Source of the DNA: Yuukianura sp. NJ FZ-2021
Lineage: Eukaryota
Reading direction: 5' to 3'
DNA length: 64,000 nt
Assembly (NCBI GenBank): GCA_046563655.1
Contig: CM102286.1
Location: 992,001-1,056,000, forward strand
The position numbers were made by a program, and so were the translations under genes. The notes under the pieces were generated by a model that was not told the DNA's origin, ran no database searches, and saw only the letters and a program-made list of their open reading frames with translations. Positions 17,782 through 31,726 of the stretch are shown in pieces (the first letter of the stretch is position 1; every line of letters begins with the position of its first letter).

Positions 17782-19165
17782 TTCAAACTAATAATCTATA
17801 CACGGAGGATTTTAGGTTAGATTAATAAAACTGAATGTTAATTGTACAATCAAACAAGATCAAACTTCACTTTTTAATTAATTAAAATGAAAACAGCATA
17901 GAATCTATATAATTAAATATTTCCCACAGCTGTTTGAAATTTTGAATTTCCGCGACATTTCATGCAGCGACGGACGCAAAAGTTGAGTTTTTTCAACTCA
18001 TGCGATTTTGCGAAAATCGCATGACGGATCGACGTATCCGATTTTCGCATGCGTCGATCGCATTCCGGTTCACAATTGCTGACTGCAAGAAATCGCATGC
18101 GTCAGCGATTTTCGCATGACGCATGCAGTGGACGCAAACCGGTTCTCACACTTTCAATGCGAATTCGCATGCTGCATGCGAATTCGCATGCGATTGCAGT
18201 CATTGGGAATCAGACTTTACCTGGATCAGAGACATCTCCATTTTAGTTCGCTTCTTCTCCAAAGCCTCAGCTGCGGACAATATTGTACGATGTGTTGTCG
18301 TAACTTCGCAGGCAGTAATTGGTGTGGCACTTTGTGCAATTCCTGCTCAAGTCTACCGTGAAAGTTCAAAGTTACTGGAATTTTGGAAAAGGGAAACGGA
18401 TGGCATAGGAAACGTGTTGAATCGCCGAAGGATCTTGCGCAGTTTGGTACCATTTGGAACACATTGCGGCAACTTCTTTGTAATTCAACCAAAGACGAGA
18501 CTAACCTACCTTCGCATGGTATTTGACAACACTGTTTACGTGCTGTTAACATTCTAACTAAAAGTTGGTTTTTCCATAAAACACTTAAATAGTTTTCGAC
18601 GTCGTAGTTTGCAGGGTTGAAAACTGGACCTCGCAAATTGCGAAGTTTTTATTAGAAATAAAAATATTTTAAAGTGAGTCGTCGATAAAGCCGCATAAAT
18701 TTTGCAGTTTTCCTTGAAAAGGAACGACAGTTTTTTTTATTAGAAATTATGATATTAGTTATTAATTAACAAATAGATATTAGTTTATTAATAAATAAAA
18801 AATATTATAAAAAATATAATAATGTAATAATAATAATATGTGAATAATAATCAATCGCTTTTGTCCATATGTGGTGTGATCGGTTCTAGGTGTGTGTGAG
18901 TAAGCGTTTGTCAAACCTGAAAATTGTTGCTTGTTCTGTTTATGTTATGCTAATTAGGACGATTAACGACAGGAAGAGTTCAACTCGCATTGCAGTCGCA
19001 GTCGGAGAGCCAAGCGCCCTTTGTAAGTTCATAAACAGCTGCTTCCAGATTTTTAACGATTAGTTAGAAAGGTTAGTCTTGCAATTACTTAATATTGTAT
19101 CTGCATGGCTTTAATAATGCTGGTAAAAGATTGTTTTTGTAAATTCTAGATACCGTTTGGGGGTC

Positions 19166-22100
19166 ATGGCACACCGAGAATCAGGCGATGGCAGAGGCAG
19201 ATCAAGAACCACTGGTGACAACGACGGCGATGTAGAAGCAACGTTTCAAGAATACTTGAGACAATGTCAACAACAAGCTGCTGATGATGATACGGTAATT
19301 CGCACTGGAATAACTGTAGTTATTCATGAATACAATTATTATACACTGAATTTGTCTTTCGTAGCACTCTTCTCCTGGAACAAGCGAATCAAACTCTTCA
19401 GCATCTACGGTCATCGATGCATTTGCGAGAATGTCAACAAGAGATGATAATAGAAGCACCTTGCCCAATGAACCATCGCCATTTGCTTCCGGAGTTCCGC
19501 CGAGTCGTGGCAGAGGAAGGGGGAGTGGGAGACCCTTCGACACAGATTCGCACTCAGACTATTCTCCAGGAATGACCCCTCAGCCTAGGTCTCCCTCACA
19601 CATCTCACCGCCGCATGGTGGAGATCGTCCATCGTTTGGAGGTTTGTGATTTAGCATTGTATCATTCAAGGCACCGTGAAACGTGAATCTAACCGTACTT
19701 TTGTTTTACGACCAGGATCAAGTTTGGGCAGAGGTCGTGGTAGAGGCAGCACAGTATTTCCCGAGGCTGTTTTCAGACCAGCAGCGGAAATTCCTATTCC
19801 AGCCTTGAAGCCATCCAAAGGCAGAGGTCGCGGGACAGTTCGACACTTGACCTTGGACGAACCCGGCCCAGGCTTACCAGTAGTAGACCAACTTCCAAAT
19901 CCAGAACAGAGCATGGCACGTTATGATGACGCTCCAGAGCCTGAGCGTGAAACGATTATTCGAAAAGGAGACAAAGGAATAGTGTAAGATTTGTTACTGA
20001 ACAATGACTTTGGATATAATTTCATAGTAACTTTTTAACTTTGTTTTAGAATTCCGGTCACTGCCAACTTCATTCGTCTCGCCGTAGAAAAGGGACGCGG
20101 GCTTTTCATGTACCACGTAGACTTTGAGCCAGAGTTGGCATCAGTTCGTATGAGGCGGTACATGCTACAAGGTCACGATAATATCCTAGGAACAGTGCGA
20201 AACTTTGATGGGGCCAAATTGTACTTGCCGTTTCAGCTTCCTGACTACGAGGTTAACTTAACTCCTGTGATTTTCTTAATATTCCAATAAAGTCATGTTT
20301 ATTTTATTAGACTGTGCTGTACACGACACATCCGACGGAGATTCAACAAACTGTTACGATTACTATTCGTTTCATAAGAGAGAATCGCATGGATGAAAAT
20401 GTTCATTTTTACAACGTCTTATTTAGACGAATCATGGAGAAACTTGGAATGGAGGAAGTCAATCGTAACTTTTACGACTACAGAGCTCGGCATCGACTAC
20501 CAGTTCATAGGTTAGTTAACATCTTACACCAGAATTGACCATTTTCAAATATGATTTCTTATTGTACGAGGCAGACTGGAAATTTGGCCTGGCTATGTTA
20601 CAGCAGTGGATGAATTTGAAGGGGGACTCATGCTTTGCTGCGACGTTTCACACAGAGTGTTACGGACAGCGACTTTGCTGGATGTTTAGTAAGCGATACA
20701 TGACTCAACTCTGCTAAACTTGAATTGTAAAAGGTTGCTGTTGCAAATGTATGTTTAAATTGCTGTAGCAATGACATGCACCATGAAAACAGGGGTAACA
20801 CAGAAAGGTTTCGACAGATGTACCGAGATTATGTAGTGTCCAAAGTCGTCTTGACCAGATACAACCGAAAGAACTACAGAGTGGATGATGTTGATTTTAC
20901 ATTAAACCCACGATCAACGTTTGAATTGGGATCAGGAGAACGGGTAAGCTGCAAAAATACGTTGCAGAATCAAGTACTCTTAAATCTAAGTTGGCGATTG
21001 TTTACTTTTTTAGATTTCGTATGTGGAGTACTACAAAAATCAGTACAATATCACCATCACTGATCTGGACCAACCGCTGATAATTCACAAGCCAAGGCCT
21101 CCCAAAGTGCCTAGAAAAGACAGACGTCCAGTAAGTTCCAACAGAAGTGACTCTTCACTAAACAAAACGTTTTTACATCGATTTTTTGTCATTTCAAATC
21201 GATCTTTGTTTAATTTTAGGTTCTGGAACTTGTTTGTTTGATTCCTGAATGCTGCAATATGACTGGACTCACAGAAGAGTTGAAGAAAGACCACAAAGTG
21301 ATGCGAGATGTCGCCGAGCACACTCGTGTCCCACCGCATCGCAGAACTGTGGCAATCCAAGAGTTTGTCAAAACCGTAAAAGGTAAAGAGTTCAAAATAC
21401 TTTCCCATCTGCATATATTTTAAATCAACTTTGTTGCTTTGCTCTCTGTTTATAGCAAATCCAGAGGCTGCTGAGCTGTTGACAGGATGGGGCTTAGCTT
21501 TAGAAGATGCTACAATTGAATTACCCGCCAGACGTATAGCCCCACCGCACATTGTAATCAACCAAGGCAAAATTCTGACTAAACAGTTCGACTTTACTCG
21601 GGATGCTATGCAAAATCCATGCTTGGAGCCTGTAAGCCCTTCATGATTTTTTTTAAAGTTTAAAGAAATGATGAATTTTTCAATATTTTTTTCAGATTCA
21701 TGTCCGACAATGGGCAATCTTTTGTACTTCCTTTGACAGACCAAAAGCAGAGACATTTGTTGAGCACTACTTCATTGTGTGTCGGAATATTGGAATCAAT
21801 GTACTTGGGAATCCAAAAATTATACCAGTACATGGGCAACAAAGGCGTCTTGTCGAAAGTTTTTCTCGAACCATTATGGAAAACTTGACGAGCAATGTAA
21901 GTCACATGATTAATTTGTCTAAAAATTTTTCAGATTTTGAGAGTTAATTTTTATTTCTCATTTCAGCTCCAATTTGTTGTGGTGATCGTGCCAGCTGAGA
22001 TTGGCGAACTCTACGAATCTATCAAGAGAATTTGTTGCCTTGAACGTCCAATTCCATCTCAAGTTATTCTTGCCAAAACTCTGGGAAATGAACGTCAAGT

Positions 22101-23277
22101 GAGATCAATTGTGTCCAAAATCGCATTGCAAATTAATTGCAAGTTGGGAGGAGCTTTGTGGACAATACGAATTCCCCTGGTCAGTTTAACATCAATTGAA
22201 TCAACAAAATGTAAATTGACTTTCGTGATTGTGTATTTCAGGGTGAGAAGATTATGTTTGTGGGCATGGATGTTTACCACGATCCGAAACGACGGAATCC
22301 ATCGATTCTTGCTCTTGTTGCTTCGTTGAATGAGATGCAAACAAAATACTTTTCTCGAATTGTGTCTCAACGGCGTCACCAAGAAATCGGAGATTCTTTG
22401 AAATCAATTTTTGCTGATTGTCTCAAAACATTTCACAAGGTACAAAGTATTTATTTTGAAATCGACGTGACCTTGACCTTGCAATGTCATTTTGATCTTT
22501 GCAGTGTTCTGGAGTTCTACCAGACAGAATTGTTGTGTTTCGTGATGGAGTTGGGGATGGTCAGTTGGATCTTACAAAAGACACTGAAGTTGTGCAAATG
22601 TTGGACGTTCTGAACAGAATGTACACGGAAATGCCTAAATTCACTTTCACCATTGTCCAAAAACGAATATCGTGCAGGATTTATGGACAAGATGTAAATC
22701 GATTTACGATTTTCCAATTGGTTTGAGTTTTTATGAAAAAATTTTTCAAGAAAATATTGTTGTTTTTTCAACATTTCAGCCCGATACTGGCAGATTCGTG
22801 AACGCTCCTTCTGGAACAGTGCTGGATCACACCGTGACAAGGAAATACTTGTACGATTTCTTTTTGGTGTCACAACTTGTGTTGCAGGTCATTGTCAAAT
22901 GAAAGTATATGCTGTTTAATTATTTAACTTAATTATTTATTATATAATATTTGTTTTTTTTAATCAGGGAACCGTGAATCCTACACATTACATTGTACTA
23001 GAAGATATTGGGAATGTACAGCCAGATTTGATTCAGAAGTTTGCCTTTGCGACGTCCTTTCTGTACTACAATTGGGCAGCGCCAATTCGCGTTCCAGCCG
23101 TGTGTCAGGTAAAAAGTTTGATTTTTGAATTGGCTTGACATTGTACATTTTTTATGATTTTGCGTGACTTATGTTTTCCGAATGTTTCAGTACGCTCACA
23201 AGTTGGCATTCTTGGTTGGGCAGTACATCAAGGAAGCTCCAGCAGACGCTCTCAGTTGTCAACTGTACTACCTTTGA
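19166..23277 (+). CDS. AGO3: PIWI-clade Argonaute, Ago3/Piwil2-like, multi-exon
   Basis: N-terminal GRGRG motifs, WPGYVTAVDEFEGGLML, PAZ (VLTRYNRKNYRVDD), PSQV, QINCKLGGALW, catalytic GMDVYH / QEIGD / FRDGVGDG / YAHKLA, C-terminal LYYL*. Confidence 0.9.
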
Positions 23278-23622
23278 ACCACATTTATTTACTTCTCCAT
23301 GTTTAATGTTAATCTCATTTCAAACTTGATATTTTTTAAAAACTTCTAATTTCTAGAATTTTAAACTCAAGTCTATATTAAAAAAGATGATTTTAAAGTT
23401 ACATTTTACTCACGAAGTATTTGGTGATACTTTTACGAAAATAAAGCCTAAGCCTACTAAATATAAGCTGTTGTAGTGTTGTACCTTTATTTAATAGTAG
23501 CTTGAATAGACGCCAAAAATAATCTCATCTCTGTTCTTGTGAGGAATTTTTTGCTCAATCTTTTATCTCTTTGTGAAAAATAATGTTGTATACAGGTTTT
23601 GCACAGAAGTTCTTCAACAAAG

Positions 23623-23636
23623 GATAGCGTGGCCGA
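23623..23636 (+). pseudogene. 5' fragment (nt 1-14) of an interrupted tRNA-Leu(AAG)
   Basis: GATAGCGTGGCCGA matches the tRNA-Leu 5' end. GATAGCG pairs with CGCTGTC at 26935-26941. Confidence 0.85.
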
Positions 23637-24210
23637 TTGACCACACGCCTGCGCCTCCAAACGCCCTGACACACTATGCGGCCATATTTTTCATTTAAAT
23701 GTATTTATTCTACCAAGACTAGGTTCGGTCATATCTTACCCAAATAAAATAAAAGTATAACAGGAAATGAAATCTAGTTATAACGCTAGTTGTGGATTCT
23801 AAAACAGTCTATAAAGCACTAGTATGGCTAAAACTCTAGGTAAACACTACAATATTGGATTGCAAAACTTATCCGTTCCAGTTCACTTGAGCAATATTCG
23901 TCGCCTAGCAGTCATTGTTCCTGTAACCTATTAGATTTACGGGAATAGTACTACAGAGCTCCACATTAATCTCTGAATTACTTAGGCCGACATAAATTCT
24001 AATATATTGGCTCACTAGAAACTTTAAGTAAATGGAACCATCTAAAGGAGCACGTTAAAGTTTAAGTTGAAGATCGCTACCATCACAAAACATTTAGGAA
24101 ATTAAACATACTAATGAGAAGGTTCGTATGATGTAGGACATCAGACTGTAACGTAACGAAAATCCAAGTTCAAAAAGCGGTCGTATCAACATCAATTGGC
24201 ATTTCCATGT

Positions 24211-26381
24211 TCAACTGCCTTCGAGACCTTCCACTAATGAATAGATTTCATATTCAGCTCCAAATTGATGTGCGTAGAGGTTGTGTACCAAATCCTGGTC
24301 TCGTTCGTTGTCCTTCACGTTGAAAAGATTGTTTATCAGCGAAATTGCGTACCCGCTTCCTTCAATTTCGGATTCTGGAGCTTTTCTTCGGAGGAGAAAA
24401 GCAATCATAGCGCACTGGATGGAGATTGATTCTATGCGGAGTCCGTTCTCTTTGGTCACTTTCAAAATCGGTTTTCTCTTCATTTCCTTCCCTTCGTCAA
24501 TTCCAATGTCGTTGCAATAGATATGAACCGAGTAAACTGGCGACGATGCGAGTGTTGCTGAAGTATGAGTCCTTGCGGAACGGTTAGATAGTTTGGCACC
24601 GATGTAATAACCGTCATATTTTGCTCGACTGTAGACGTACAAATCTTTGGATAAGTCAATCTCTTCAGTATTCCCAATCTTGATAAAAATCGGGTCCAAA
24701 TCAGTTCGAAGTGCAGGAAGTGGCTTTGATCTTAGGCCAACCTCAAATTCCTTCATGTACTTTGTCAATAATTCTCTATTTTTGGAAATGCAAATAGAGG
24801 TCATGAAGTTGATGAATTTTCCCCTCTCCTCGGGAAGATGTGACTTGAGATATGCTGCCGTCTAATATAAATAACCAACCTTGAATATAATCTTTGGCAG
24901 CACAACATATGGTATGAGGAGCTTAAGTTAATGCTAGTTCTTACAGAAATTGCTGCAAATTCACTCATAGCATCCTCCTTTGTCTCAAAAACCTTGACGA
25001 TGGGCGACCTTTGAGCTGCAACAGGACATTTTTGTTGAATAAGATATTTTGTGTTCTTCCACAAAAGTAGACTCTTAGTTTTGATTTCATCTGTAGCATA
25101 GAGTGACGTTGCCGCAAAGGACTGCGTGACCGCCGAGAAGAATGTCTTTCCTCGGTAACGGACAGAAATCCAAGCAACAGTGTAGCACTTGGTTGTGCCA
25201 CAACTTATACAGACAATCCTCTGTCCGTACCACCGCACATTTTTGTCATACGAAAAGCACTCTGCGTAAAAAATAAACAAACAATACATGAGATTGAGAT
25301 TACGTAAACTTAATGTTAACTGTTTAATTTGAGTAACCTTGGCAGAGATTGAAAGAGTGGTTGGATCCCCTGCAGACCAAATGCTTCAAACCCTGATCAC
25401 TCTTGCCAACTTTGAATCGCAGGTTAGGGTATTTCGGAAGAACAAAATTGCCCTTCAAGGCTAGACATTCTCTGTAGTGCCTAGGTTGTAGGACTCCAGT
25501 AAATGGTTGTTGTCGGCTCGCGCGTCTCAACTTAGTCAGAATACCCTTCGCCGCTAACGTGCCGATATGTTTGGTCGAATCTTAAACCAAAAAATGTTTG
25601 ATCTTTTGTTAATATTAATAAACTAGAAGTAAGTTTAATAAAGTTGAAATTATAGCATACTTGGCCTGTCATATTGCATTGAAAAACTCCGTCCTTTCTC
25701 CAAGATGTAGATGTTTGGTTCGTCCGTACTGATATCAAAGAAGTCGACGTCATCCGCCTAGAAATATAACACACCGCGCAGTTGAGTCATACGTATAAGT
25801 GTTATACCTTCAAACAAGAGCGTTTTTCAATAAAATCCAACGAGGTATTTGTTTTATGGTTTGTAGTTGCTGAAGTTAGTACCAATATTGCACAAATTGA
25901 GAGTACAACGCAACACGTTAATAGAAAAACTGGCTTCAAGCAAATGGTATGACTTTAATTAAATTTGTGTTGTCGCTTACCGCTGGCACTGGTGGGACGT
26001 ACCCCAAGGTCTCAGGAGTCTAATTAGAAAAACTTAAAACGTTACTGAGAGTCCATGGAATACCGCCATTTCATTTTTTTTTTGTAATTACCACTTCTAC
26101 CACATTTTGTGTGGCTATGTACTGTTCATCATCGTCCGTGTCTTGTGACACATCATGTTCTGACTGAAATACAAAAAGAAACAAACATATAACGTCATTC
26201 CCACAAGCACATTTAACAACTTTTGCTTAAATTGTATGAATCCCGCAATTAACCTTACCTCAAGAAGCCGACGACCCGACTTGTAAACACAAAACGGAAG
26301 AGTAAGATCTTCTTTTGCATATTCAACGCGGTCATCACTGGAGTCGTTCAATGTCGGATCGTCTTCGGCACTAGAAGACAT
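24211..26381 (-). CDS. Uncharacterised ~500-aa spliced protein inside the tRNA-inserted element
   Basis: In-frame GT..AG exon chain: acidic N-terminus (MSSSAEDD..), Cys/His cluster (LVCRGSNHSFNLCQEC..VCISCGTTKC), and a ~215-codon last exon. Small N-terminal exons are uncertain. Confidence 0.65.
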
Positions 26382-26571
26382 CTTGTTGAGGGATGACAGG
26401 AGAACCAACGGAGAATGACAATGGCAGCTCCGTTTCAAAAAAATGAACTTAAAAATTTAAACTTTAAATGCACTTTAGTTTTAGAAGAGATGAGAAGACG
26501 GAAGTTTTTTATTCGCTTACCATTAGAATTCATCACAGTAGAATCTTTTGAGACCACTTCCAGTACCGAAT

Positions 26572-26652
26572 GGGAGCGTAGCAAAGCGGTTAATGCGCTG
26601 GTTTAAGGCACCAGTCTCTTCGGAGGCGTGGGTTCGAGTCCCACCGCTCTCA
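26572..26652 (+). tRNA. tRNA-Leu(AAG), intact, carried within the element
   Basis: Acceptor GGGAGCG/CGCTCTC-A, A box TAGCAAAGCGG, anticodon arm CTGGT-TTAAGGC-ACCAG, long variable arm, B box GGTTCGAGTCC, downstream T-run terminator. Confidence 0.92.
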
Positions 26653-26875
26653 GTAAATTTTTTTTTTCAATTCTTTCAAACTTTTTTTAGCTCAAAATTG
26701 TTAATTTGTTACCGAAAAATTTTTAAACATTTAATTTAAGTTTGGTTTAATTTAAGTAGGATTTTTTGTTTGCTCCTTCACATTGCACATTCACTCCATA
26801 CTCTGCTTTTCTCATGACAAGGTCAGCATTTCATTTATTACTGAAATTTCATAAAAGTTCCCTGTGGGTCAATTA

Positions 26876-26942
26876 CGGTCTAAGGCGCCAGTTTAAGGCA
26901 CTGGTCTCTTCGGAGGCGTGGGTTCGAATCCCACCGCTGTCA
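26876..26942 (+). pseudogene. 3' portion of the interrupted host tRNA-Leu(AAG)
   Basis: CGGTCTAAGGCGCCAGTTTAAGGCACTGG...GGTTCGAATCCCACCGCTGTCA plus a T-run. The first ~15 nt are missing locally. Confidence 0.9.
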
Positions 26943-27119
26943 CACTTTTTTGCTTTAATTTTTTCATTTTTGATACCCCAGCAGAATTTAAGGTTACCGC
27001 CAAGCGATTTTTCAGAAGAATTTACAAAGCCCGATTTGATTTGATATTTTTCATTCCGGTGCGGAAAAAAAATCTTGCTTCCGTCTACCTCTTTACGCCT
27101 CCATAATTATTGTGAAAGG

Positions 27120-27402
27120 TGAATTAAATTTCCCCGATTAACTTCTCGCCGTTTAAAGTTTCCCCAATTAACTTTTCGCCGTTTAAATTTTCCCCAATTA
27201 ACTTTTCGCCGTTTAAAATCCCCCCAGTTAACTTTTCCCCGTTTAAAATCCCCCCAATTACATTTTCCCCGTTTAAAGTTCCCCCAATTAACTTTTCCCG
27301 TTTTAAATTTTCGCCAATTAAGTATTCGCCAATTGCTAAATTGGCGAAAGTTAAAGTTTTTAATTGGGGAAACTTTAATTGGCGGGGGAAAGTTTAATTA
27401 GT
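27120..27402. repeat. Tandem ~15/30-bp array (ccccaattaacttttcgccgtttaaa) followed by inverted copies; MITE-like
   Basis: About 7 direct 30-bp units, then reverse-complement units (taattggggaaactttaattggcg). Confidence 0.8.
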
Positions 27403-27614: not shown

Positions 27615-29364
27615 ATGTTTTTCAAAATTTTAATTATTGCTGTTTTCGCAAATTCTGCAAATGGATTTCAGTTGATTCGTGAAGAAATGGTTGTGTCTTC
27701 ATCTGAATTAACAGTTTTTACTCTCTCACCATCGTTGTTTCATTGGGAATGGACTCCAGGTGAAAAGTTTCTTTAAAAAACAACTTTTTAAAAATTTTAA
27801 ACAAAATTTTTAACTTTTTGTCAAAGCAGAAATCGTCAAACAAATTGAATACTTCCCAAGAAAGGCCGAAGCAGCAGATCTTCCAGCATGGCTTCACTAC
27901 ACATACGACGAAGTGACATCCGTTGGACACCTTTATGGCACACCACCACAGGAAACCATGGTCGTGTCCATTGACGTTGTCGCCGTCAATCGAAACTTCA
28001 GTTTTGACGTGCGTCAACTCACTTTGACGTTGAACGTTATTCCTCAACCACCACTGGACTACGTCGTGGAACTCAAAATTGATAACATGGAGCCCAGACA
28101 TTTTTGCAACACCAAAGAAATTTTGCGACTTGCAAAAACTTTTAGCAAATTCCTGGATTGGCACTACAAAGACGGCAGTCCAGCTACGCCTGTATATTTG
28201 GCATCACCAAATGACGTTGGAGAAATTGACTTTTCCCGGTCATATGGAGCTCAAGGGTAAGAATAAATTTTCAATTTTGACAAATTTCAAATTTTCTAAA
28301 ATTTTCAAAAAACTTTTCTTGAAGTGTCATCATTCACCTTGGCTCGGACATGAACTTCAGTACAGAGATGATCAAATTGCAGAATGAGGTTTTGCCACTA
28401 GCAAAACTTCGTCCATGTCCTCAAAATTTGAAACGGACGTCAGTTGAAAAGTATTTCAGAAGTCAGCGCATGATTGTAGACTGGTGTTCGTTCAAATTGA
28501 AATACAATAATGACCTTAACTCAACATCGGGGTCAGAGGTCAATCCAGGTCAAGATGAGCAAGAATTTGGAGACTTTTCTAAACAAATTCCACCACTAAG
28601 GACGTCGCTTCCAGAAAAAAGCTACACGAGCACAGTCCTTTTGGTTACGATTGTTCCAGCGACGCTCGCTTCACTAATCACGGTCATCCTCATTGGAATT
28701 TTTTGGAACGACGAAGATGAGACGCTTCCAGTGTAAGAAAAAAAAATTGACATCAAAAACTTTCAAATTTTTATGCTTTTTAAAAAATTATCTTTGTTTG
28801 CTCAAACAGGAACGGAGACATTTTATTTTTTGAAACCGCGTTTCGAATACTTTTCATTTTGTTCAGGTTTCTCTATTTTTTTTTATTTCTTAATTAATTT
28901 ATTAATTAATTAAGCCACGCGCTGTTAAAAAAAAATTCCCAGAGAAAATTTGATAAAACCTGGATTATATTTTTTGTTTTGAAAACAAGTTTTAATTTTT
29001 GTTTGTGATTGTGTGACGTTAGTTGCAAAAGTGAGACGCAGTACTACAATGACATTGAAGATACCGCATTGGCCAGAAGTGGGCCTGCTGGAACCAGTTA
29101 CCAACCGTATCAAGATGTAACTGTGGGTGATGATGATGACAACTTTTTTCTCATTACTGGAGACGAGTCCAGGCATGACCCTGAGGATGACCTTCGACCT
29201 CAAGCCAGAGAAGATCCACTTCCACAGTACAGGCATGTGGCTCCTCCCGCTGTGCATCCAAAGTAAGCAACAAACATAACTTTTTAGCATAAAAATATAT
29301 ATAAAAAAATTTTATTTTTAAATTATTTCGCAGTGGGAGTCCCGCCCTCACCTACGCCGTTTAA
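27615..29364 (+). CDS. Alpha/epsilon-sarcoglycan
   Basis: Signal peptide, cadherin-like DLPAWLHY..GHLYGTP, CP..DWCSFKL, a single TM helix, and a cytoplasmic tail ending LTYAV*. Confidence 0.85.
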
Positions 29365-30509: not shown

Positions 30510-31726
30510 ATGATTGCAGAAGCGTTTTTCACCACTCCATTGACTAATACAACGACAAAGAGAAAAAGTAAGCAAACCTTCAAAATTTTGGCAACTTATT
30601 CAACAAAAAGCATTAAAAAGTTGTGTATTTAGAAAAGGAAAACGGAAATATCCAGAAAAAACCTGTGCTTGGAGTCGTTGCTTTTGATTTCGGAGAATTA
30701 AGGGATCCAAAATTTGGAATGTTGCGAATTAGTGGCAAGTTTCCGCGAATTTACTCAAAATTTAAACGCGAGACTTTAGCGGAAGAAGATTTGAAGGAAA
30801 TGAGTGCCAAATTGATGAAATGGTTTAATCCGTTTTTCAAATACTATTTTGAAGGAGACGCTCTACAAGAATTAAGTGAAACTGCTTTCCAGTATGCAGC
30901 ATTCATCTATCCACAAGCGGAAATCGGCAGTACTCAACTCACTTTGGCAACAAAACTTTTTTTCTGGATGTGGATTTCGGACAATGTTGTAGAATTGGCA
31001 GTATCCAAGAAAGTTTCATTTGAAACCCTAAATTCCGGATTTCGTCAGATACACAAACTTTTCAAAAATGGCGACACGAAATTTGTTGAAGTCGAAAATT
31101 TCGCGGGATTTCGCGTCCTGTTTGAATCTCTTATTAATTTACGCGCCGAATTTGTGCAAAATGTACCAAATTTTGAAAGTAGAATTGAACATTTTTGTTA
31201 CTATTTTAAGAATTACTCAAATGCTCTACGCTGGTATGCTGTTGACCACATTGACCACAAATACTCGGAAGAAACTTTTTTGAATTTTCGACGCCATGAC
31301 AGTTTTGCACTTGGATCGTGTGAGTTGCTTTGGATTTTGGAAGGAGGTTGTCTTCCTGAAGATATTTTTGGTGCGCCGTCTCTTCGGCGTCTTCTGGAAC
31401 TTGCAAGTTCCTATTTTGTTTATGTTAACGATTTAGTTGGAGTGAAAAAGGAATTGAAAAATGGTGATTTTGATAGTTTTGTGATGTTTAAAGTTATTCA
31501 AAAGGGCAAGTCACTGACTGAAGCCACCGAAGAAGTGGTGGAAGCCATGAGACGTGACCTTACAGAGTACCTGATACTGCGCAGTACTGTTCTTCAAGAG
31601 TTCAACTCTGACATAAGCTTAACAAAATATTTAGAAGTAGTTGACGCAGTTCTAGAAGGAACAGTCAGATTTCATATCAGTTCAAAGCGGTATCACGCCG
31701 TTGGACTTTCACAAGTGACAGAATGA
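30510..31726 (+). CDS. Microbial-type class I terpene synthase (short 5' exon 30510-30567 plus a long exon from 30633)
   Basis: Asp-rich motif variant SDNVVE, FRRHDS sensor Arg, NSE-like NDLVGVKKE and C-terminal SKRY, in the correct spacing within ~370 aa. Confidence 0.85.

Follow-up and report, generated by a model that had tools for sequence, protein, structure and literature searches.

A predicted 513-residue protein with no recognisable catalytic domain, encoded in a tRNA-carrying element that interrupts a tRNA-Leu(AAG) gene of Yuukianura sp.

The DNA analyzed here comprises 64,000 nucleotides of Yuukianura sp. NJ FZ-2021 (GenBank assembly GCA_046563655.1, contig CM102286.1, positions 992,001 to 1,056,000 of the forward strand), and is referred to below as the window; all coordinates are counted from its first nucleotide. 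It contains an insertion of approximately 3,236 bp which splits a tRNA-Leu(AAG) gene. Between its inverted ends this element carries a non-coding tail of about 570 nt, an intact gene for a protein of 513 amino acids, and an intact tRNA-Leu(AAG), the latter referred to as the cargo tRNA. We tentatively propose, with somewhat less than even confidence, that the 513-residue protein is the element's own site-specific enzyme, belonging to a catalytic type that our searches did not recognise. An earlier note on this DNA, prepared from the letters alone, had drawn attention to the gene, and its claims are taken up below where the results bear upon them.

The target of the insertion is a tRNA gene with the same anticodon as the cargo, and it is interrupted in the D-loop, directly after A14. 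Its 5' fragment (nucleotides 1–14, GATAGCGTGGCCGA) lies at 23623–23636 on the plus strand, and was recognised by acceptor pairing: this is the sole place in the window where an acceptor 5' strand complementing 26936–26942 is followed by TGGCCGA. The 3' part, running from C16 to the discriminator base, occupies 26876–26942 on the plus strand. It was located by repeat search and by blastn, and is 89% identical to the cargo tRNA over 62 nt. At the right-hand junction, direct reading reveals TTA (26873–26875) standing where G15 of the tRNA is expected. When the element was excised in silico, by joining 23623–23636 to the sequence from 26876 onwards, ARAGORN regained a tRNA-Leu(aag) in all five of the five variants submitted.

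The insertion is bounded by imperfect terminal inverted repeats (TIRs) of 10–11 bp. The left repeat (TTGACCACACG) is found at 23637–23647 and matches the reverse complement of 26862–26872 with one indel; the right repeat (CTGTGGGTCAA), at 26862–26872, was defined by reading the junction and comparing the repeats. Of 20000 random 12-mer pairs drawn from the window, 23 reached the score of this pair. The TIR (TGTGGGTCAA), which can be written TGTGG(G)TCAA, resembles the D-arm of the target, GTGG-CCGAGCG-GTCTAA, minus its central 7 nt, a likeness taken from direct reading with no statistic attached. No target-site duplication (TSD) is visible, the flanks reading ...GGCCGA / element / TTA-CGGTC... 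with no duplicated 6–7-mer. Readings with a TSD of 2, 3, 4 or 6 bp, including TA, TTAA and TWA, were tried directly on the sequence, and none of them fits both junctions.

Because the tRNA-Leu gene is split and the ends are inverted, the 513-residue gene can be placed within an element that carries a tRNA as cargo, and this context supports a mobile element. Together with the five excisions that restored a tRNA, it lends support to the premise of the earlier note, which had spoken of an element with a cargo tRNA. Neither a second copy of the element nor a paralogue of its protein was found within the window. The left junction (18 nt) was also scanned against metagenome contigs. Six matches were obtained, none of which adjoins a tRNA or encodes a relative of the protein, and they were for this reason judged to be due to chance.

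The cargo tRNA-Leu(AAG) was detected by ARAGORN at 26571–26653 on the plus strand, where it is followed by a run of T residues. It scores 57.7 bits against Rfam RF00005, for which the gathering score is 29. Rfam returned tRNA only, with no intron ribozyme. Compensatory changes distinguish the cargo from the split tRNA in the acceptor stem, the D stem and the anticodon stem, and the difference is greatest around the insertion site. By blastn, positions 26587–26678 and 26876–26966 are 82.8% identical over 93 nt, so that the similarity continues for approximately 25 nt past the end of the tRNA into the T-rich trailer. Since the trailers are included, the cargo and target tRNAs may derive from tRNA-Leu genes that were neighbours or duplicates of one another.

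A divergent spacer of 189 bp (26382–26570) separates the cargo tRNA from the start of the protein-coding gene, which is read from the minus strand (26381–24211) and is the only long open reading frame (ORF) between the inverted ends. Its seven exons were joined by script according to predicted splicing, giving 1542 nt and 513 codons for amino acids with no internal stop, from an ATG at 26381–26379 to a TGA at 24213–24211. Exon 1 (26259–26381), which carries the start codon, exon 2 (26092–26163) and exon 4 (25661–25757) all encode acidic sequence; exon 3 lies between the last two at 25981–26019. Exon 5 (25338–25580) specifies residues 111–191, comprising a basic stretch and the first half of a Cys/His cluster (H145, C149, H177, C180, H185 and C190). 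The second half of this cluster (C193, C209, C212 and C217) is found in exon 6 (24945–25261; residues 192–297), along with a weak match to a zinc ribbon of the IS1595 type. Exon 7 (24211–24861) encodes residues 298–513 and the stop codon, and would form a C-terminal domain whose relatives went undetected in our searches. All six introns are of the GT..AG type and measure 72–223 nt. Beyond the stop codon is the non-coding tail (23648–24210, minus strand), which is probably a 3' untranslated region; the longest stop-to-stop frame within it amounts to 49 amino acids, and AATAAA can be read on the minus strand at 23709–23704.

The reading frame of this gene is backed by codon use and by base composition. 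In frame, the codons correlate with 798 neighbouring Pfam-supported codons at r=0.73, versus 0.24 and 0.29 in the two other frames, and the GC content is 0.44 in the exons and 0.30 in the introns. The observation of the earlier note, namely an open, spliced ORF of some 500 amino acids which diverges from the cargo tRNA, is hence confirmed as a seven-exon gene model, its splicing being predicted by computation. The sequencing runs listed as containing this stretch comprised four DNA runs, all from one study, and no RNA run.

Within the protein, residues 1–110 contain 27 D/E versus 8 K/R, and ten Cys or His residues fall between positions 145 and 217; an acidic N-terminus and a Cys/His cluster had both been described before, and both are present. 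A motif scan of the 513 residues revealed neither YxDD nor HxxR at any position. On inspection there is no CxxH and no Cys beyond residue 447. A lone DxxH (DLVH, residues 487–490) was detected, which has no DDE context. The earlier statement that the protein lacks the YxDD of reverse transcriptases is therefore correct, and no reverse transcriptase family was matched by Pfam. Its companion, that there is neither a DDE nor a DxxH pattern, holds for DDE and fails for DxxH, in view of DLVH.

The search for relatives was carried out at several levels. Pfam was run on five exon translations singly, with reporting at E≤1, and revealed no transposase, reverse transcriptase, recombinase or ligase domain; the single match to emerge was the sub-threshold zinc ribbon. 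Searches of NCBIfam, PHROGs and PDB sequences returned noise (CT584 at E=0.07, a PHROG at 0.47, and a nanobody and 3C-like proteases at E~1), and exon 5 matched no family and no PDB entry. Exon 7 (216 amino acids) had no match at E≤0.001 among 1.84 billion representative proteins, and none among metagenome contigs and viral contigs. Word-indexed searches, in which exons 5, 6 and 7 were compared with longer proteins, likewise yielded no relatives. The collections hold few animal genomes, and empty searches are therefore weak evidence of uniqueness; the protein is an orphan in the sense that its relatives were undetected in collections poor in such genomes. Across Pfam, NCBIfam, PHROGs, PDB and the 1.84 billion proteins, the claim that it has no recognisable transposase or reverse transcriptase motifs has nonetheless survived. 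Structure prediction from single sequences with AlphaFold2 gave a predicted local distance difference test (pLDDT) score of 33 for exon 7, which is unusable, and of 59 for exon 6. A comparison by AlphaFold and Foldseek had been suggested in the earlier note; with the exon 6 model, Foldseek found no match in PDB at E≤0.001, and the best Z in a wide VIA-align search was 4.8, where the stated noise is 7–8.

One weak signal had escaped the earlier reader. On exon 6, Pfam PF12760 (Zn_ribbon_IS1595) was matched with E=0.028 and 14.8 bits, the cut-off being 25.4. We built a hidden Markov model (HMM) of IS1595 transposases from loci in 607 bacterial genomes, keeping 31 full-length proteins and leaving out the loci of two unpublished genomes. 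This model gave the spliced protein 4.5 bits, a score matched by 1 of 1000 shuffles, and aligned residues 187–227 to the ribbon, with Glu-Cys, Arg-Trp, Gly and CxxCG positions common to both. Using hhalign, the same ribbon stretch of the protein was aligned to IS1595 over 36 columns (P=0.0063). The ribbon family has a second CxxC knuckle, which is absent from the protein. Three methods thus point to a single stretch, and the likeness to the IS1595/Merlin zinc ribbon is suggestive, not significant. No exon gave a Pfam match to DDE_Tnp_IS1595 (PF12762) at E≤1. Judged from these profiles, the protein is not a member of IS1595/Merlin, and it may share with that group a DNA-binding ribbon of the IS1595 type.

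From this material a mechanism can be suggested, in which a protein that binds and cuts DNA would move the TIR-bounded element of about 3.2 kb into tRNA-Leu genes, at the stretch that codes for the D-loop. Recognition of the 10–11-bp TIRs would fall to the Cys-rich region of the zinc ribbon (residues ~177–227), which would also bind the similar GTGG...GGTCTAA in the D-arm of the tRNA. The cutting and joining of DNA might be performed by an unrecognised catalytic domain, for which exon 7 and the Cys/His cluster are the two candidate locations. The acidic N-terminus would be a disordered tail. The tRNA-Leu(AAG) borne by the element would stand in for the gene destroyed by the insertion, which would thereby be rendered harmless. 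What the sequence shows is the insertion with its inverted ends, the split target, and the intact gene and cargo tRNA; DNA binding and catalysis by the protein, the autonomy of the element and any current activity are inferred. The surroundings of the site have a precedent in Dada-tS, a transposon whose target in tRNA-Ser and tRNA-Leu is TGGCCG (nucleotides 8–13, then AG; excerpt of PMC8869645); since that site adjoins our insertion point, this region of the tRNA gene is already known to be targeted by DNA transposons.

Several observations weigh against the proposal of an enzyme. DDE transposition usually leaves a TSD, and none is visible here. The Pfam, NCBIfam, PHROGs and PDB sequence searches recognised no catalytic domain whatever. 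When an IS1595 DDE domain was sought in exon 7, hhalign gave a score of 14.5 against the 31 transposases, which 78 of 200 shuffles equalled, and an alignment of exon 7 with the IS1595 DDE made by hand (EID... / CND... / IES) was thrown out on this result. The zinc-ribbon signals all fall under curated thresholds, and CxxC ribbons match one another easily. The structure models are too poor for use (pLDDT 33 and 59) and have no fold match. A single copy was seen, with none other in the 64 kb of the window and no relative in the collections searched, so that mobility and autonomy rest on one insertion.

The main rival, possible and on balance doubtful, is that the element is non-autonomous and that the ORF is its passenger, either a captured or a lineage-specific host gene such as one for a zinc-binding regulatory protein, with no role in transposition, the enzyme being encoded elsewhere in the genome. 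This would agree with the want of a catalytic motif or domain from any search, with codon use like that of the neighbouring host genes (r=0.73), with the six introns of the gene, and with the one copy visible in 64 kb. Against a passenger it can be said that no other long ORF lies between the inverted ends and that the sole weak similarity of the protein is to a zinc ribbon of the transposase type; that no parent copy or relatives were found is a weak argument, the collections being poor in animal genomes. The earlier note had offered this same alternative, a new mobilising enzyme or cargo of a non-autonomous element. The element itself and the unrecognised nature of the protein's domains have been upheld, while the two motif hints which accompanied them have not.

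These hints concern SNRSARTHTSATLA, which begins at residue 389 and had been likened to box II of the tyrosine recombinases of Cryptons, and AKYDG, which begins at residue 377 and had been likened to motif I of ligases. Were the protein a Crypton-like tyrosine recombinase, a circular element would integrate into the tRNA gene without a TSD. Besides the box II resemblance, this fits the lack of a TSD and the palindromic site which, by direct reading, the joined ends would make. We nevertheless consider it very improbable. Pfam Phage_integrase (PF00589) was unmatched at E≤1 on any exon, and HxxR occurs nowhere in the protein. Our own HMM, derived from 28 bacterial catalytic domains (two loci, one from an unpublished genome and one from the very start of a contig, were excluded, and no Crypton sequences are included), reported no score for the spliced protein even with filters off, and hhalign aligned an unrelated stretch with P=0.41. 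The supposed box II is moreover located only some 10 residues past a beta-hairpin-like segment, and hence too close to it. A nucleotidyltransferase or ligase with KYDG (residues 378–381) as motif I is scarcely credible. The tetrapeptide is indeed present, but neither Pfam (E≤1) nor the PDB sequence search pointed to a ligase, an RNA ligase or a capping enzyme. No companion ligase motif was revealed by Pfam, and just ~135 residues lie downstream of KYDG, which is short for ligase motifs III–V.

The most interesting reading that the data would allow has a slender chance of being right. In it the 513-residue protein would be a His-Cys-box nuclease of the His-Me-finger type, similar to I-PpoI, and would cut the D-arm of tRNA-Leu(AAG) genes that are still intact; the element would spread by repair-mediated homing, with the cargo tRNA as a cleavage-immune rescue copy, a natural form of 'cleave and rescue'. 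The spacing H177-x2-C180-x4-H185-x4-C190-x8-N199 mirrors C100-x4-C105-x4-H110-x8-N119 of I-PpoI. Shuffling the whole protein reproduced the pattern once in 20000 trials, and shuffling residues 140–240 twice in 20000, counts that are flattering because the pattern was set after the sequence had been viewed. At least eight Cys/His residues are on hand for two zinc sites. For I-PpoI, H98, H110 and N119 are named in PMC9587614, which also describes His-Me nucleases inside animal DNA transposons. The equivalent of the conserved E114, on the other hand, is out of line in our own alignment. The motif straddles the junction of exons 5 and 6 (intron 5), and no Pfam His-Me family, PF05551 among them, was matched on either exon, each having been run singly. 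An HMM of 26 bacterial HNH domains, which represents classical HNH (PF01844), gave −2.2 bits, equalled by 483 of 1000 shuffles. Homing would explain the missing duplication and the divergence of the cargo D-arm, the two tRNAs differing most around the insertion site, but it leaves the inverted ends unexplained.

Among known systems, the Dada DNA transposons are the closest in lifestyle. Our element was set apart from them by motif inspection and by the published description, in excerpts from Kojima and Jurka 2013 (PMC3706591) and Kojima 2022 (PMC8869645), to which the statements that follow are limited. Dada elements measure 4.7–11 kb, generate TSDs of 6–7 bp and encode a long DDE transposase in which a DxxH follows the second D, with a CCCC finger towards the N-terminus and a CCHC finger towards the C-terminus; that of Dada-U6_DR has 1402 amino acids (PMC3706591). 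In common with the present element they have a single intron-containing ORF and insert site-specifically inside multicopy small-RNA genes, including tRNA-Leu, and the TGGCCG target of Dada-tS adjoins the insertion point seen here after A14. Their short inverted sequences near the ends resemble the target, as our TIR resembles the D-arm, and in the Dada-U1 of Kojima and Jurka a sub-terminal repeat recurs in the target (PMC3706591). The present element differs in being 3.2 kb in length, below the range of the family, in possessing true TIRs and in not displaying a TSD of 6–7 bp. Its protein, at 513 amino acids, is about a third of the length of the Dada-U6_DR transposase, has no CxxH and no Cys after residue 447, and contains an isolated DxxH at 487 without the DDE/DxxH context. 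The spacing within its C-x2-C...C-x2-C is 15, rather than Cx4C-x34-CxxC. Finally, it is accompanied by an intact replacement tRNA, which the excerpts do not mention for Dada (PMC3706591, PMC8869645). In our literature search, Dada was the sole family of eukaryotic DNA transposons in small-RNA or tRNA genes to surface, and none with a full replacement tRNA was encountered, which is absence and not proof. The present case is a small-RNA-gene-specific DNA element built around an unrecognisable protein, and it rests on a single copy.

With IS1595/Merlin the element shares short TIRs and, at residues ~187–228 of the protein, a weak likeness to the N-terminal zinc ribbon. DDE_Tnp_IS1595 is undetectable, however, and the protein has 513 amino acids versus 270–380 in the bacterial transposases compared. 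The family produces TSDs of 8–9 bp, and none is present here. Prokaryotic integrative elements of tRNA genes carry a tyrosine integrase that is easily identified as such, and a partial copy situated at the junction serves them to reconstitute the tRNA. They are like our element in inserting into a tRNA gene and in providing for a working tRNA; they differ in that our element holds a complete and separate tRNA gene with diverged stems, and an integrase is undetectable in it. The likeness to the His-Cys-box nucleases (I-PpoI) and the His-Me nucleases of KolobokP lies in the spacing of Cys/His ligands, in a possible His...Asn pair and in the tie to site-specific insertion in a multicopy RNA gene. 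The 513-residue protein departs from them by its length and its large additional C-terminal domain, by the lack of an intron ribozyme in the Rfam scan and by the lack of profile support. Those enzymes are small; according to the excerpt of PMC9587614, they reside in rDNA group I introns or have a DDE transposase as their neighbour.

The window as a whole resembles an animal genome, having a GC content of 32–42%, short GT-AG introns, and Piwi and sarcoglycan-like neighbour genes. A multi-exon gene at ~19100–23280 on the plus strand specifies an Argonaute of the Piwi clade. The protein is rich in RG at its N-terminus, contains Piwi_N and Piwi domains, and has Piwi-A/Piwi chains as its closest matches in PDB. 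This gene ends approximately 350 bp from the split tRNA, which places a transposon-silencing gene directly beside the insertion. On the other side, some 150 bp past the 3' part of the split tRNA and outside the inverted ends, lies a tandem array (27096–27400) of 15/30-nt units in about 12 registers, with a consensus around AATTAACTTTTCGCCGTTTAAA. The array turns into its own inverted copy at 27336–27384. It is followed by a gene at 27617–28260 (plus strand) with a signal-peptide-like start and a Sarcoglycan_2 domain (alpha/epsilon sarcoglycan N-terminal; E=3e-12), which backs the metazoan origin of the window. Further along, at 30617–31726 on the plus strand, is an intronless ORF of 369 amino acids containing Pfam Terpene_syn_C_2, the domain of microbial-type terpene synthases (E=9e-18). 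It has no close relative in the prokaryote genome contigs, and may be either a terpene cyclase encoded by the animal itself or a gene acquired horizontally long ago.

What the element means depends on the part played by its protein. As a passenger, it would make a modest case, that of an orphan gene carried within a non-autonomous element. As the enzyme, it would provide a compact and sequence-specific integrase or nuclease that looks programmable and is suited to a safe-harbour locus, and would offer a natural precedent for cleave-and-rescue gene-drive designs. That the protein is the first of an undescribed class of mobilising enzymes in eukaryotes, namely a nuclease or transposase structured by zinc, specific for a site in the D-arm of tRNA-Leu genes and travelling with a target-immune tRNA-Leu(AAG) of diverged D-arm, we hold to be unlikely; if true, an animal genome would harbour a natural selfish element that cuts an essential gene and brings the rescue copy with it. 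An unrelated, unrecognisable protein in an element that lives as Dada does, together with true inverted ends, the lack of a visible TSD and a replacement tRNA of its own, would suggest an independent invasion of the niche.

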